From Dehalococcoidia bacterium (GTDB lineage Bacteria; Chloroflexota; Dehalococcoidia; Plut-88900), in assembly GCA_965197585.1 (NCBI GenBank), contig OZ240215.1:2240001-2304000 (forward strand): 64,000 bases of DNA, read 5' to 3'. Below are positions 1-59,966 of this stretch, in pieces (position 1 is the stretch's first letter; every line of letters starts with the position of its first letter). Under the pieces are notes generated by a model that saw nothing but the letters and a program-made list of their open reading frames with translations, had not been told where the DNA came from and ran no database searches. The position numbers and the translations under genes are program-made.

Positions 1-2
1 GT

Positions 3-546
3 GCCATCTCCTCATCCCACGGGTCCCGCGTGCCCCCTTCCCCGGTAGTCAGGCGATGGAAAGACGCCCTGGACAGAGCCATAGCGGACCGGCCATTCCC
101 CGCCGAGACGGGGTCTCGGCGGTCGGTTAGCAGCGAGCTTACGCTATATCAAGCTAGGGGTGGCGGACCGGCTATCCCCGGCCGAGACTCCCTCTCGGAG
201 GTTGGCCCGCCTGCGAGCTTACGCCATATCAAGCAAGGGGCCGTTGGGCCGCGTAGACCCTCGGGTGGCCCACGCAAATACAATATCTGAGGGGGCTATT
301 GCCCGATCACTGGCCCCCACCATGCCTGCGGGCATTCAGAGGCGGGGTCAAGGCTCGACTGTCTGCCCGGACAGTCGGAGCCCTCCATCGAGCGCTAGGG
401 CGCGGTCGGCTGCAATCCGCCCTCGGCGGACCTCCAGGCCCCCGACAGCCGGAACACCGCACGAGCGTAGAGGCTGACAGGCTCAACGGACGTCTTCCAT
501 CGCCAACCTCCCCAACAGACAGAACCGAAACCCACAAACCCCACAA
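3..546 (+). ncRNA. Candidate large structured non-coding element, copy 1 (5' part probably truncated by the window edge)
   Basis: 5' block (3-72) and 3' block (491-546) closely match the reverse complement of 59503-59570 and 59076-59131. Inverted repeat GGCGATGGAAAGACG (52-66) / CGTCTTCCATCGCC (491-504) encloses many hairpins. No credible ORF; a 2-nt indel in the shared block argues against coding. Confidence 0.55.
84..240 (+). repeat. Two tandem 77-78 nt structured units (84-160, 163-240)
   Basis: Both follow GCGGACCGGC..CCCC..GCCGAGAC..TCTCGG..GCGAGCTTACGC.ATATCAAGC.AGGGG; a related third unit lies at 59358-59436 (-). Confidence 0.85.
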
Positions 547-632
547 TCGAAGATGCTGCAAGTCCGTCGTAGGCGGGGACCATCCGCCTCGCGCTGGTCC
601 GCCTCAGGAGGACTGAATAGCCCCCTACTCCA

Positions 633-678
633 TCATCCCGAGGCGCCGCGAGGGATCTGGGGTGGGGGTTCCCACCCC
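633..678. repeat. REP-like palindrome (TCATYCCGAGG..GAGG[G/A]ATCTGGGGTGGGG family)
   Basis: Near-identical to 12100-12135; related to 13217 and 55135. Confidence 0.7.
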
Positions 679-697
679 GGCAGTCTTACTTGCGCCC

Positions 698-38799: not shown

Positions 38800-38995
38800 A
38801 CACTCAGAAAGGAGGTGATCAATTGGATATTGATGATAGACGGACTTGTGAGGTGTCTGTAACGTAAACGGTTTGACACGTAGGGGGCGTCCCCCTGGGT
38901 TCCGTTTGCGGAATCCGTGCAGACGCCGGGCCCCGAAGCTCCCGGGTTGTCCACCGGGACGGCCATAGGCCGAAGTGCTTCGGGGCTTTCTCTTT
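38800..38995 (+). ncRNA. Candidate small structured transcript carrying a 14-codon sORF (38823-38867)
   Basis: Possible promoter TTGCGC-18-TATATT; extended SD AGAAAGGAGGTGATC; multibranch stems; closing stem GCCCCGAAGC / GCTTCGGGGC plus a U-rich tail. Confidence 0.45.
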
Positions 38996-57711: not shown

Positions 57712-58989
57712 CTAGGGCCGGACGTGACCGCGGCCCAGAATTATCCACTTGTAGGAAGTCATCTCCCGGAGCCCCATCGGGCCCCGAGCGTGCATCTTCT
57801 GCGTGCTGATCCCCACCTCCGCCCCGAGGCCGAACTGGCCGCCGTCAGTGAAGCGGGTGCTGGCATTTACAAATACAGCCGCCGCGTCCACCTCGTCGAG
57901 AAATCTCTGGGCCGCCGAGTAGTCCTCGGTTATTATCGCCTCTGAATGCCCCGACCCATAGGTCTCTACGTGGTTCAGGGCCTCGTCCAGCCCATCGACA
58001 ACTTTGACCGAAGCGACCAGGGCAAGAAACTCCGTACCCCAGTCGGATTCTGTTGCGGGGACTGACCGGGCCTCGGGCACGCTCTGGAGCAGGTCGAGGG
58101 CCCTTTCGTCGCACCGTATCTCTACGCCCTTCTCGCTCCAGGCGCGGGCGATTCGAGGTAAGTATTCGTGGGCGACGGCTGAGTGCACGATGAGGGTGTC
58201 CAGGGCGTTGCAGGTGGAGGGGCGTTGTACCTTGGCATTGTAGGCTATGGCCACCGCACTGTCCAGATTGGCCGACTTGTCCACATACGTGTGGCACACC
58301 CCCACCCCACCCTCGACAACCGGCATCGAAGCATTCTCACCTACGTAGCGTATGAACTGCTCACTGCCCCTGGGCACCAGCAGATCGATCAGCCCCTTCA
58401 TGCCGAGCATCTCGCCGACCAGGGACCTGTCAGTCGACTCGACGAACTGAACAGCCTCCCCCGGCCCCCCGGCCTCCACGAGGCTTTCCCTCACGATTGA
58501 GGAGAGGATTAGGTTAGACCTGATGGCCTCCTTGCCGCCCCTCAGCAGCACCGCGTTCCCCGACTTGAGACACAGGCACGATATGTCTATGGTGACATTC
58601 GGGCGGCTTTCATATATTGCCCCGATCAGACCCAATGGCACTCGCCTCTTCCCGACCTGCAGCCCATTGGGCAGCGTCCTCATGTCAAAGGTCTCACCGA
58701 CAGGGTCGGGCAGCACGGCAATGCCCTCAACGTCCGCAGCGAGAGCTTGAATCCGCTCGGGCGTAAGCAAAAGCCTGTCCAAAAGGGACTCGGACAGCCC
58801 GGTCGCGACACCCGTCTCGCAGTCCTGACGGTTGGCCGAGACAATATCCTCCTGCTTTTCGAGGAGGGCTCGCGCTATGTTCCTCAGGGCCCGGTCCTTC
58901 ACCGCACCGCTCGCCCGACCCAACTCCCGCCCCGCCCCCCGAGCCGCCAAAGCCTGCACCCTAAGGTCTTGTTTAACACTCGTAGTCAT
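57712..58989 (-). CDS. proA: Gamma-glutamyl phosphate reductase
   Basis: IYESRPNVT, LRGGKEA, CNALDT, NASTRFTDG, STQKMHARGPMGL. Confidence 0.97.
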   Translation of the reverse strand: MTTSVKQDLRVQALAARGAGRELGRASGAVKDRALRNIARALLEKQEDIVSANRQDCETGVATGLSESLLDRLLLTPERIQALAADVEGIAVLPDPVGETFDMRTLPNGLQVGKRRVPLGLIGAIYESRPNVTIDISCLCLKSGNAVLLRGGKEAIRSNLILSSIVRESLVEAGGPGEAVQFVESTDRSLVGEMLGMKGLIDLLVPRGSEQFIRYVGENASMPVVEGGVGVCHTYVDKSANLDSAVAIAYNAKVQRPSTCNALDTLIVHSAVAHEYLPRIARAWSEKGVEIRCDERALDLLQSVPEARSVPATESDWGTEFLALVASVKVVDGLDEALNHVETYGSGHSEAIITEDYSAAQRFLDEVDAAAVFVNASTRFTDGGQFGLGAEVGISTQKMHARGPMGLREMTSYKWIILGRGHVRP

Positions 58990-59075
58990 TGCTCTCCTAT
59001 TATCAGGACTTGACCGCCGAGGGGCAAGAACGTGTACTCGTTCGGTAGATTAGTGACACACCGGGTTTTATTCAG

Positions 59076-59570
59076 TTGTGGGGTTTTGGTTTCCGTTTTG
59101 TCTGTTGGGAGGAGGTTGGCGATGGAAGACGCCCATTTGGCAGAGCTGCTTGTACGTGGACTTGCAGCCAGTATGCCCTGATGCTAGATGGTATACACGG
59201 ACAATTCTCGGGCCAGACGTCCGGCAGAGGCTCCTTATGGGGGCTGTATGCCCGTGGGGACACGTCGGGGCCAGGGATCTAGCTGTGCGAGGCCCCACAG
59301 CCTAACTAATAGTGTCCAAGTTCGCCGGAAAAGGACAGGAGCGAATATCCTCCGGGCACCCCCGCGCCGCAGCGCCAGTCTCCAGCAATGCGGCCCGACG
59401 TTCGAGACGGTTCTCCATGGGGGTTAGGCGGTCCGCGGAGCGTATGCTCTGGTCACCCTTGATGCAATCTCCCGTACAGGGAGCGGGGTGGGAGCGTGAA
59501 GGCCAGGGCGTCTTTCCATCGCCTGGGGATCAGGGAAGGGGGCACGGGACCCGTGGGATGAGGAGATGGC
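59076..59570 (-). ncRNA. Candidate large structured non-coding element, copy 2
   Basis: Same end blocks as 3-546; IR arms at 59506-59523 and 59118-59134; several H-type pseudoknot patterns inside. Confidence 0.55.
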
Positions 59571-59712
59571 GTCGGTCGCTTGTGCCGCGGGCCTGCGCGA
59601 GGGCCGTTGGGATGGGCTTGGACGTTGAGTCCTCTGGTGGGTCGAGTGTGGGCTTCCCTAGTTTTTAGTTCCTCCTTAAGGTAGTTGGGTTAGGTAGTCT
59701 AGACCTGGCTAC

Positions 59713-59742
59713 AATATAGAACATAAGTACTTATAATGTCAA
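59713..59742 (-). promoter_or_regulatory. sigma70-like promoter overlapped by a LexA (SOS)-like box
   Basis: TTGACA-18-TATATT on -; AGAACATAAGTACT (59718-59731) is one mismatch from AGAAC-N4-GTTCT. Confidence 0.6.
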
Positions 59743-59907
59743 GGGGGTGATGTCACCCCTCTATGTGAACGGGATCAAACGGCCCGACCCAACGTAAATC
59801 TCTCTCCGAAGGCGTCTCCTATGACGGGTTGGAATAGCTGACGACTAGCCAGACCTAAGCAACTCCCCTTCAAACCACCTCTTCGCACCCTCCTAACCCA
59901 CCTCCTC

Positions 59908-59966
59908 CCCACCCCCCGAGCCGCCAAAGCCTGCGCCCTAAGGTCTTGTTTAACGCTGGTAGTCAT
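59908..59966 (-). pseudogene. Duplicated 5' end of proA (about 20 codons)
   Basis: MTTSVKQDLRAQALAARG vs MTTSVKQDLRVQALAARG; DNA matches 58931-58989. Confidence 0.9.

Follow-up and report, generated by a model that had tools for sequence, protein, structure and literature searches.

Two related elements at the ends of the window

The window analysed here, a stretch of 64,000 nucleotides, holds two copies of one element in inverted orientation: copy 1 (E35), on the plus strand at the very start, and copy 2 (E36), on the minus strand upstream of a proA-like ORF that starts at 58989. The first ~130 nt of the copy 1 RNA precede the window start. The parts of both copies are given below, each in its own 5′ to 3′ order.

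Ahead of the window start (L135 139–167): promoter of copy 1, TTGACC-17-TATTCT
1–51, plus strand: 3′ part of the conserved 5′ domain, copy 1
52–69, plus strand: 5′ strand of the closing helix, copy 1
70–487, plus strand: interior of class 4, copy 1
488–504, plus strand: 3′ strand of the closing helix, copy 1, GGACGTCTTCCATCGCC
505–620, plus strand: C/A-rich tail of copy 1, then optional hairpin modules (UCCGCC-N3-GGAGGA type) and the end CTGAATAG
59778–59782, minus strand: left 5-bp flank of copy 2, CCGTT, the presumed target-site duplication
59743–59777, minus strand: left terminal inverted repeat of copy 2, TGATCCCGTTCACATAGAGGGGTGACATCACCCCC; this repeat occurs in 15/57 copies of the genome
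59713–59742, minus strand: copy 2's own promoter, TTGACA-18-TATATT (11/12 matches)
59524–59705, minus strand: conserved 5′ RNA domain, copy 2; the start at ~59705 is predicted from the promoter
59506–59523, minus strand: 5′ strand of the closing helix, copy 2, GGCGATGGAAAGACGCCC
59135–59505, minus strand: exchangeable interior of class 1, copy 2
59118–59134, minus strand: 3′ strand of the closing helix, copy 2, GGGCGTCTTCCATCGCC
59063–59117, minus strand: C/A-rich, G-poor tail of copy 2, conserved in the family
59033–59062, minus strand: right terminal inverted repeat of copy 2, GGTGTGTCACTAATCTACCGAACGAGTACA; this repeat occurs in 25/57 copies of the genome
59028–59032, minus strand: right 5-bp flank of copy 2, CGTTC
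58999–59027, minus strand: promoter of the downstream gene, its −35 TTGCCC directly after the right flank

A preliminary description of the locus had recognised two end blocks that recur in inverted orientation and enclose unlike interiors, and our analysis bears this out. Positions 1–72 match 59760–59503 on the minus strand (81%) within a 255-nt block, which in copy 1 begins ~180 nt ahead of the window's first base, and positions 485–546 match 59137–59076 on the minus strand (86%). The framing helix was also read correctly: GGCGATGGAAAGACGCCC (52–69; 59523–59506 on the minus strand) pairs with GG(A/G)CGTCTTCCATCGCC (488–504; 59134–59118), with one bulged A, and this pairing is part of the minimum-free-energy fold of both copies. 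The interiors, 433 nt in copy 1 and 386 nt in copy 2, do not align and belong to different classes. That of copy 1 contains an internal tandem duplication of ~78 nt (84–160 and 163–240, 79% identity). The description of the family as two-copy is true only inside the window, as we counted 57 copies genome-wide. Absent from that description was the surrounding context, in which the frame formed by these blocks lies within a DNA transposon that ends in inverted repeats and is bordered by target duplications of 5 bp.

The two copies differ at their ends. Copy 1 lacks both terminal repeats and has REP-like hairpins in their place; other REP-like hairpin repeats are abundant throughout the genome. 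Copy 2 keeps both repeats, and its flanks (CCGTT/CGTTC) match at 2/5 positions in register and at 4/5 when slid by one base; its target-site duplication is degraded. A contig from metatranscriptome run X20, from a relative of ~93% identity, joins 58926 to 59904; the intervening 977 bp, copy 2 included, are absent from it. At 977 bp, the insertion is not a simple one of 750 bp: a duplicated stretch of 72 bp from the proA start bounds it. Flanking duplication of this 72-bp type was rejected as a property of the family, being found in only 2/57 copies (E15 and E36).

A genus-wide family inserted beside promoters

The genome searched (G000, the genome of the window) is a single 3.4-Mb contig, 92% complete. 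All 57 of its copies have both halves of the closing helix, and many matches to the family were obtained in 8/8 other genomes of the same genus, to which it is confined among the genomes searched. The viral contigs searched with a 28-nt core pattern gave 0 matches. In titles and abstract openings, the literature on noncoding RNA and repeats in Dehalococcoidia offered nothing relevant, the matches listed for bacterial MITEs, promoters and small RNAs dealt with general MITE work only, and papers on repeats and transposable elements of sponge Chloroflexi symbionts did not mention the element. Each copy is laid out as a sigma-70 promoter, a conserved 5′ domain of ~190 nt, a closing helix of 15–20 bp, an interior and a C/A-rich tail. 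The same −35 and −10 boxes align in 57/57 copies, and the promoter, an AAGGAGG motif and a 30-nt core are present in all of them, those without transposon ends included. There is no transposase gene: the longest ORFs reach 118 and 108 aa, 0/6 of the element's ORFs (at most 118 aa) matched Pfam, and alignment indels are not multiples of three.

Intact copies carry imperfect inverted repeats of ~30 bp (5′-TG...CA-3′) and are bordered on either side by a direct repeat of 5 bp. The left end aligns with the reverse complement of the right end with a score of 10 (z 4.2; 1/300 shuffles as good). Both terminal repeats were found in 27/127 copies examined, at 22 distinct sites, where the 5-bp flanks are identical in 10/22 cases and match at 4/5 positions in 7/22, compared with 0.6% and 2.9% for permuted partners. 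For other classes of left end, the apparent CCCAA matches, judged by eye, were conserved family sequence and not flanks, and duplications were rejected there. Beyond the right flank, the 22 sites give the consensus T19 T15 G19 A15 C13; intact copies thus sit directly 5′ of a −35-like TTGAC hexamer and are co-oriented with it, and their internal sigma-70 promoter lies just inside the left end. A clean empty site exists in G000 at 2384060, and TTTCG is duplicated at its occupied counterpart (L011). Several further 'empty' sites have diverged too far to count as clean, and a solo left end stands at the groES promoter.

The terminal inverted repeats (TG...CA), the 5-bp duplications, the siting 5′ of TTGAC and the empty sites therefore point to a non-autonomous DDE-type transposon. 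We conclude that copies 1 and 2 are probably members of a genus-wide family of such DNA transposons with a structured RNA as cargo. As for the suspicion that the recurring blocks might be the ends of a decayed IS, the outermost ends of the element are indeed IS-like, but the blocks themselves are RNA-coding parts. In G000 both terminal repeats remain in 14/57 copies and neither in 31/57 (copy 1 included); since so few copies retain both, most are fossils or spread some other way. With respect to replication, 21/57 copies are co-oriented if the GC-skew minimum is taken as the origin, which is uninformative.

The siting beside promoters also raises the idea of a mobile promoter or leader cassette, whose selected effect would be read-through into the downstream gene from the strong internal promoter, with the long structured RNA as its 5′ UTR and not a free RNA. 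The element is co-oriented with the downstream −35 and directly upstream of it, no intrinsic terminator was found on the RNA strand of copy 2, and in 46/57 copies an ORF of 150 aa or more on the same strand begins within about 490 nt downstream. Yet the downstream genes retain their own intact promoter, tRNA genes follow two copies (E20 and E40), and for nine copies the only long ORF downstream is convergent. The conserved 55-nt C-rich, G-poor tail, which is predicted to load Rho for termination or to be single-stranded, and the presence of a Rho gene in the genome fit termination ahead of the gene, and a leader would have no need of 15 covarying interior classes. We consider a leader function unlikely. 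For a non-autonomous transposon, landing immediately upstream of promoters would provide a safe haven in which the downstream core promoter is left intact. Insertion by this rule, 5 bp ahead of TTGAC and in one orientation, is a precise specificity that spares this promoter, and it could explain how an uncultured symbiont lineage with a compact genome tolerates a load estimated at about 1.3% of its 3.4 Mb (~57 copies of ~0.8 kb).

A structured RNA with exchangeable interiors

The RNA of the frame matches no known family, as the preliminary description had surmised. At the gathering threshold, the whole window gave only an unrelated Ms_IGR-5 match in Rfam; both copies searched at E up to 10 gave noise only, as did 14 representatives of the interior classes at E up to 1, where the hits fell in flanking REP hairpins. 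No model matched the RNA at or near the gathering score, including those of OLE, GOLLD, ROOL, raiA, HEARO, RNase P, tmRNA, 6S and group II introns.

Covariation supports the fold. For the closing helix, cognate partners from 130 copies (94 variants) pair at −31.6 kcal/mol compared with −26.9 for random partners, and the helix comes in flavours such as GACGCC/GGCGTC, GGTCC/GGACC and GACACT/AGTGTC. In alignment A2, 97.1% of cells are paired versus 37–51% when slid, with 8 compensatory pairs versus 0–1, and the covariation score was beaten by 0/500 shuffles. The class 1 interior has 71 predicted pairs, 98.2% of them canonical versus 38–48% with partners slid; class 4 has 98 pairs, 97.3% canonical and 9 compensatory. 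One hairpin singled out from copy 1 beforehand, GGCTC-GACTGTC/GACAGTC-GAGCC, is kept with compensatory changes in 14 class-4 copies. Covariation is sparse in the 5′ domain (4/19 pairs), because this domain is nearly invariant; among relatives such invariance is forced, since their loci were retrieved with a pattern taken from the 5′ domain itself. In copy 2, AAGGAGG lies unpaired near the 5′ end of this domain, which also contains two nested helices, GGGAA/UUCCC and GAGGA/UCCUC, as well as the invariant GAGGACTCAACG..AGCCCATCCCAA. The preference for the promoter-read strand, also proposed earlier, was recovered (folding z −1.23 versus +0.74 for the complement), and conserved G-U pairs are compatible with that strand only.

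Could the fold be incidental to GC-rich repeats or to DNA hairpins used in transposition, with a functionless transcript on purely selfish DNA? The folding energy of the whole framed region beats that of shuffles by a modest margin only (z −1.23, with 10/100 as good; z −2.25, 2/100), the ends have decayed in most copies, and this genome is rich in other REP-like hairpin repeats. Against this, helices are maintained by compensatory changes across classes and species, the G-U pairs are strand-specific, promoter, AAGGAGG and 30-nt core persist even in end-less copies, and the family is found in RNA libraries. We therefore give a purely selfish account little credence.

Metatranscriptome contigs in 4/4 runs examined cover 59008–59667 and none of 59668–59887, a gap that is no proof about the transcript start. 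This RNA evidence consists of assembled contigs only, strandless and without ends, and DNA carry-over is possible. The contigs are deepest over the 5′ domain, a depth that sums many paralogues. As a weak hint, three contigs from three studies extend 35–42 nt past 59634–59641 as diverged paralogues and stop near AAGGAGG.

The interiors form 15 discrete alternative classes of 305–553 nt, not growing arrays. Each promoter type is combined with 5–8 interior classes, and at 7/12 apparently orthologous, hand-picked locus pairs the interiors could not be aligned. Homologous recombination or gene conversion would reshuffle interiors, promoters and ends among copies. Because there is no Rfam match, helices covary and the interiors fall into 15 classes, the frame RNA is supported as an undescribed modular family of large noncoding RNAs, in which the frame is conserved and the interior can be exchanged. 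That part of the original interpretation stands, and its other part, a retron a1/a2-like or unit-accreting array, is not supported. Such an array, made by a reverse transcriptase or HUH protein whose gene lies elsewhere, would fit the inverted repeats (the closing helix) framing a variable part and the tandem ~78-nt duplication in the copy 1 interior. No RVT_1, Y1_Tnp or TnpB-type (Cas12f1-like_TNB) domain was found in the one-contig, 92%-complete genome, the interiors are discrete classes, and copying does not proceed via the transcript, because the promoter, being part of the mobile unit, is copied along with it. A retron-like array is thus scarcely credible.

The cargo would be a discrete RNA of about 0.55–0.75 kb, in which the 5′ domain and closing helix form a putative scaffold presenting one of about 15 alternative interiors. 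By analogy, the unpaired AAGGAGG would act as a ribosome-binding 5′ stabiliser, for which the STAB-SD of Bacillus is a precedent. Two other roles were considered and rejected: a sponge for Hfq (through the ARN-like tail) or CsrA (through GGA hairpins), as neither protein family was found in the 92%-complete genome, and an antisense function of the invariant core, which has only scattered 11-mer matches elsewhere in the genome. A bolder and rather improbable extension is that the scaffold carries interchangeable payloads of ~300–550 nt, traded by recombination, in a host-level multi-copy RNA system that owes its spread and its retention near promoters to a transposon targeting −35 hexamers. If so, the copies might serve, for example, as decoys or as assemblies with different specificities, and their 'plug-in' architecture would have no described counterpart among large RNAs.

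Mobilisation and relation to known elements

Some bacterial MITEs can supply promoters and noncoding RNAs, as described in a review (PMC10969869) for the Correia elements of Neisseria and for QMITE1/2 of Coxiella, the source of Cbsr3/13/16. MITE-like elements with promoters and short sRNAs are thus already known; a high-copy transposon whose sole cargo is a covarying RNA of 0.6–0.75 kb with a swappable middle would be unusual, and would link large 'ornate' RNAs with mobile DNA. Like MITEs and mobile insertion cassettes (MICs), another class of non-autonomous element, the family has terminal inverted repeats, target-site duplications and many intergenic copies. MITEs are usually much shorter, with a size limit of a few hundred bp, whereas intact copies here span 699–885 bp (0.70–0.89 kb), and we therefore class the element as a MIC-like non-autonomous transposon and not as a strict MITE. 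It differs from both MITEs and MICs in its cargo, a covarying modular RNA of 0.55–0.75 kb with about 15 interiors, and in an insertion aimed just upstream of −35 hexamers. With OLE, GOLLD, ROOL and raiA the RNA shares a length of several hundred nucleotides, the lack of an ORF and a conserved multi-helix fold, but those RNAs occur in one or few copies, compared with ~57 per genome on a transposon, and the middle domain is here swapped between copies.

Structured RNAs on mobile elements, with ORF-less derivatives, are also found among HEARO/omega-RNAs, PATE (IS200/IS605) and IS110 bridge RNAs. The RNA of our element is 3–4 times longer, and the inverted repeats and 5-bp duplications of the element are not known from those families. 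An RNA-guided or RNA-assisted element, with the RNA as recombinase cofactor in the manner of IS110 bridge RNA, IS200/605 omega RNA or CRISPR-associated Tn7, is suggested by transcription from within the element, by TG...CA ends, 5-bp duplications and one-orientation insertion by a fixed motif, all of which recall Tn7-like targeting, and by IS110-family ORFs directly upstream of E17 and E57. Near-identical class-1 RNAs (E22, E36 and E55; 92–96% identity) nevertheless sit at sites that share TTGAC only, so the RNA cannot specify the site. No Y1 or TnpB-type domain was found in the genome, IS110 and IS200/605 are not known to make 5-bp duplications, and 2/9 IS110 ORFs adjoin a copy, against 57 copies in total. 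We regard RNA guidance as very unlikely.

Because of the TG...CA ends and the 5-bp duplications, an rve-type DDE transposase (IS3/IS481/Mu/Tn7-like) is the presumed agent that would move the non-autonomous element in trans. The genome contains 29 rve ORFs; no autonomous element with the same ends as the RNA element was found. From its very tip onwards, the left end of IS-A, a resident IS of 1056 bp in about 20 copies, can be aligned with the right end of the element (score 11, z 3.8, the best of 28 comparisons); among the same 28 comparisons, the left end of IS-B reaches z 3.2. IS-A was found in 4/8 other genomes of the genus and IS-B-like genes in 6/8. With its similar ends IS-A may be the mobiliser, but it was not found in 4/8 of these element-bearing genomes, nor were IS-B-like genes in 2/8. 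Like IS3/IS481-type IS (rve DDE), the element has TG...CA termini and a 5-bp target duplication, and in both the element and IS-A, which is of this type, a promoter faces inward with its −35 inside the left inverted repeat or immediately after it. Unlike IS-A, the element has no transposase gene, and the targets differ, being the REP hairpin GTCATTCC for IS-A and the position 5′ of TTGAC for the element.

Copy number and architecture

The element had been described preliminarily as a two-copy structure, yet nhmmer, queried with the sequence of one 5' block, found 57 copies in the source genome (G000; 3.43 Mb, single contig), and in 57/57 the 3' half of the closing helix lies 0.4–0.9 kb downstream of the 5' block. 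The window spans G000:C1:2240001-2304000. The blocks of that description held for the two window copies. Window 1-72 aligns with 59760-59503 (-) within a 255-nt block at 81% identity, which starts ~180 nt ahead of the window's first base, and 485-546 aligns with 59137-59076 at 86% identity. Both copies form the closing helix (GGCGATGGAAAGACGCCC / GG(A/G)CGTCTTCCATCGCC, one bulged A) in their minimum-free-energy folds, and the interiors it encloses (433 and 386 nt) are not alignable with each other.

Queried with copy 2 DNA, 12 of 41 related genomes matched, including 8/8 other genomes of the genus (22–29 listed matches each, which are not copy numbers); the 29 others gave no match, and G010, G019 and G029 gave weak matches only (E ~1e-5). 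An exact-pattern scan for the 28-nt core in one genome per species returned at least 90 stretches, those listed all being Dehalococcoidia MAG records; in viral contigs this pattern was matched 0 times. On the promoter strand, the parts of one element are, in 5' to 3' order:

Left terminal repeat: TGATCCCGTTCACATAGAGGGGTGACATCAC, then CCCC
Internal promoter: TTGAC (-35), 17-18 nt, TAnnAT (-10)
Short palindrome around the predicted transcript start
AAGGAGG, after the palindrome and before the conserved domain
Conserved 5' domain: ~190 nt, containing the invariant GAGGACTCAACG..AGCCCATCCCAA
Closing helix, 5' strand, between the conserved 5' domain and the interior
Interior: framed regions of 305-553 nt
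Closing helix, 3' strand, after the interior
Tail: ~55 nt, C/A-rich and G-poor
Hairpin modules: 0-3 per copy, UCCGCC-N3-GGAGGA
CTGAAnAAAA, between the hairpin modules and the right repeat
Right terminal repeat: GGTGTGTCACTAATCTACCGAACGAGTACA

All 57 copies keep the promoter, AAGGAGG and the core, even those without transposon ends, and the internal promoter of copy 2 matches 11/12 consensus positions. Among relatives, one 5' domain is broken by ~2.6 kb (L057 2891-3076 and 5662-5742), and ~80 model positions of this domain are duplicated internally in all five copies fetched from another genome (L021, L054, L066, L075 and L092).

Transposon ends, target sites and mobility

We surveyed the ends of 127 copies (57 in G000 plus those in loci of relatives) and found both terminal repeats in 27, representing 22 distinct insertion sites. 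The 5-bp flanks were identical at 10/22 sites and matched at 4/5 positions at 7/22, compared with 0.6% and 2.9%, respectively, when flanks of different copies were paired randomly. Intact copies are 699–885 bp long, start with 5'-TG and finish with CA-3', the left and right ends forming an inverted repeat (score 10 in local alignment, z 4.2). Base counts in the six positions following the right duplication (T19 T15 G19 A15 C13; n=22 sites) place the element directly 5' of a -35-like TTGAC, relative to which its orientation is constant. In copy 2, the downstream hexamer is part of a promoter, TTGCCC-17-GATAAT, lying 10 nt ahead of a proA-like start; inspection by eye revealed a -10-like hexamer at the correct spacing from the downstream TTGAC in many other copies. 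Insertion just upstream of promoters could offer a safe haven, as the downstream -35/-10 would stay intact.

Insertion polymorphism was observed between locus L011 (occupied, TTTCG duplicated) and G000 2384060 (empty); the remaining candidate empty sites, apart from that of copy 2, were too diverged for a clean comparison. This polymorphism, the site of copy 2 and a solo left end (both described below) all support mobility. We conclude that the element is a DNA transposon, bounded by inverted repeats and flanked by 5-bp duplications, whose target is the position just 5' of TTGAC. Signs of mobility come from copies with intact ends, which are the minority: in G000 (n=57), the left repeat was found in 15 copies, the right in 25, both in 14 and neither in 31. 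Copy 1 has neither, REP-like hairpins standing in their place.

The site of copy 2 is less simple. The proA-like ORF has its opening 72 bp in duplicate (window 59896-59966 and 58918-58989 (-), 90% identity), and copy 2 separates the real start from the second version, 977 bp farther upstream. A relative's 2,134-nt contig from RNA run X20 (proA identity ~93%) connects 58926 directly with 59904 and has none of the 977 bp. A complex event seems likelier here than a simple insertion; perhaps an allele bearing the element was imported, with one of its junctions illegitimate.

At G000:C1:3404961-3405100, a solo left terminal repeat, 38/38 identical to the left end of copy 2, is fused to the groES promoter and followed by a TTAGCACTC-N9-GAGTGCTAA inverted repeat, which we take to be the CIRCE/HrcA operator. 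The solo end is what a deletion running from the TTGAC of the element to that of the target would leave. Elsewhere, a 1.3-kb IS encoding a 423-aa rve protein (G000:C1:659339-660650) splits copy E05 between left repeat and -35.

The predicted RNA cargo and its exchangeable interiors

The element carries an RNA gene: behind the internal promoter lies an ORF-less stretch whose helices covary. No reading frame exceeds 118 aa; those present are Arg/Pro-rich, and 0/6 had a Pfam match. Across 130 copies (94 distinct variants), pairing of the closing helix is kept through changes in both strands (flavours GACGCC/GGCGTC, GGTCC/GGACC, GACACT/AGTGTC and GGCAATGG/CCATTGCC), with a mean energy of -31.6 kcal/mol for cognate partners vs -26.9 for random ones. 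In interior class 2 (alignment A2, n=23 sequences), pairing over 42 consensus pairs is 97.1% canonical vs 37–51% with slid partners, compensatory pairs number 8 vs 0–1, and the covariation score was equalled in 0/500 shuffles. A custom script gave 98.2% canonical and 6 compensatory pairs for class 1, that of copy 2, and 97.3% and 9 for class 4, that of copy 1, within which the previously named hairpin GGCTCGACTGTC covaries. The strand proposed from G-U pairs is also upheld: conserved G-U pairs agree with the promoter strand, whose fold z is -1.23 vs +0.74 for the complement. Of the 19 consensus pairs in the 5' domain, just 4 show compensatory change; AAGGAGG is unpaired. Conservation here is mainly at the sequence level; relatives' loci were retrieved with a pattern taken from this domain, so that its invariance among them is forced.

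Six RNA runs contain small shares of the stretch, of which four, from four studies (2 labelled sponge metagenome), were examined. Contigs cover 59008-59667 in 4/4, deepest at the 5' domain, where depth sums paralogues, and 59668-59887 (promoter and upstream) in 0/4. RNA libraries thus contain the family at contig level; assembled contigs carry neither strand nor ends and may include DNA carry-over, and do not by themselves prove transcription.

The 130 framed regions form 15 classes (70% reciprocal coverage), six with 12–24 members. Helix flavour is strictly tied to interior class, while each promoter type occurs with 5–8 classes. Among 12 locus pairs taken as orthologous on the basis of shared flanks, 7 (6/11 G000 elements) had arms and flanks aligning at 72–93% around a wholly non-alignable interior; the interior was alignable in the other 5. 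In 5/5 tested elements, the nearest 5' arm lay elsewhere than at the orthologous locus. Recombination or gene conversion among copies is the simplest reading of these alignments; an identical pattern may also arise when different members insert independently at one TTGAC site. In copy 1, the interior includes a ~78-nt tandem duplication (window 84-160 and 163-240 (+), 79% identity) common to other class-4 copies.

The 5' domain and closing helix may form a scaffold on which the alternative interiors are presented. By analogy, the 5' AAGGAGG may be a ribosome-binding stabiliser, for which Bacillus STAB-SD is a precedent. Termination may be Rho-dependent, within the C-rich tail: rho is present in G000, and no intrinsic terminator was found on the copy 2 RNA strand. 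Neither Hfq nor CsrA was found in G000.

Known systems and candidate mobilising enzymes

In agreement with the preliminary description, copies 1 and 2 and representatives of 14 interior types had no Rfam match; the element belongs to no Rfam family, retron, IS200/605 or IS110 RNA class. The sole gathering-level Rfam match within the 64-kb window is RF02471 Ms_IGR-5, an actinobacterial sRNA, at 38800-38994 (+) (54.8 bits, gathering score 45). RVT_1, Y1_Tnp and TnpB-type domains were not found in G000, which speaks against the suggested retron- or cassette-like architecture. Inverted repeats, duplications, insertion polymorphism and the lack of a transposase all liken the element to a MITE or mobile insertion cassette, but its size falls outside the MITE range. 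Our literature search found no description of it; passages on Coxiella MITEs in a 2024 review mention only short sRNAs (PMC10969869). We rate the element a non-autonomous transposon with a large modular RNA as cargo.

No transposase gene enclosed by the element's ends was seen in G000. TG...CA ends with 5-bp duplications are a hallmark of rve-type DDE transposases, and the element may be moved in trans by such an enzyme; G000 has 29 rve ORFs. The RNA cannot choose the insertion site, because near-identical class-1 RNAs occur at sites sharing only TTGAC. One resident insertion sequence, IS-A (1,056 bp, ~20 copies at 99% identity, 329-aa rve transposase; e.g. G000:C1:1248220-1249275), resembles the element in having a -35 inside its left repeat. 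Aligned from the tip, its left end and the element's right end scored 11 (z 3.8), 1 of 28 comparisons. IS-A always inserts within the REP hairpin GTCATTCC|GAGGC..GGAAT, with a 5-bp ATTCC duplication, and was found in only 4/8 other same-genus genomes; genes like those of IS-B, another resident rve-type sequence, were found in 6/8. Several IS-A copies lie at most 0.7 kb from E11, E15, E45 and E53.

Of nine IS110-type ORFs in G000, two (DEDD; G000:C1:1396256-1396699 and 3412979-3413422) immediately precede copies E17 and E57 in the same orientation. These copies share an identical left-flank module (GATATATCAATAAAACAGGGCGGG...), also found before six other copies without an IS110 ORF. Intergenic DNA of G000 (e.g. 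L135 1-120, window 621-690) is dense in several REP-like hairpin families (GTCATTCCGAGGC..GGAAT, CCCTCTCCC..GGGAGAGGG and CGTAGGGGCGACCGGCCGGTCGCC). In many copies these hairpins take the place of the transposon ends, and in some relatives they lie within the 5' domain as well.
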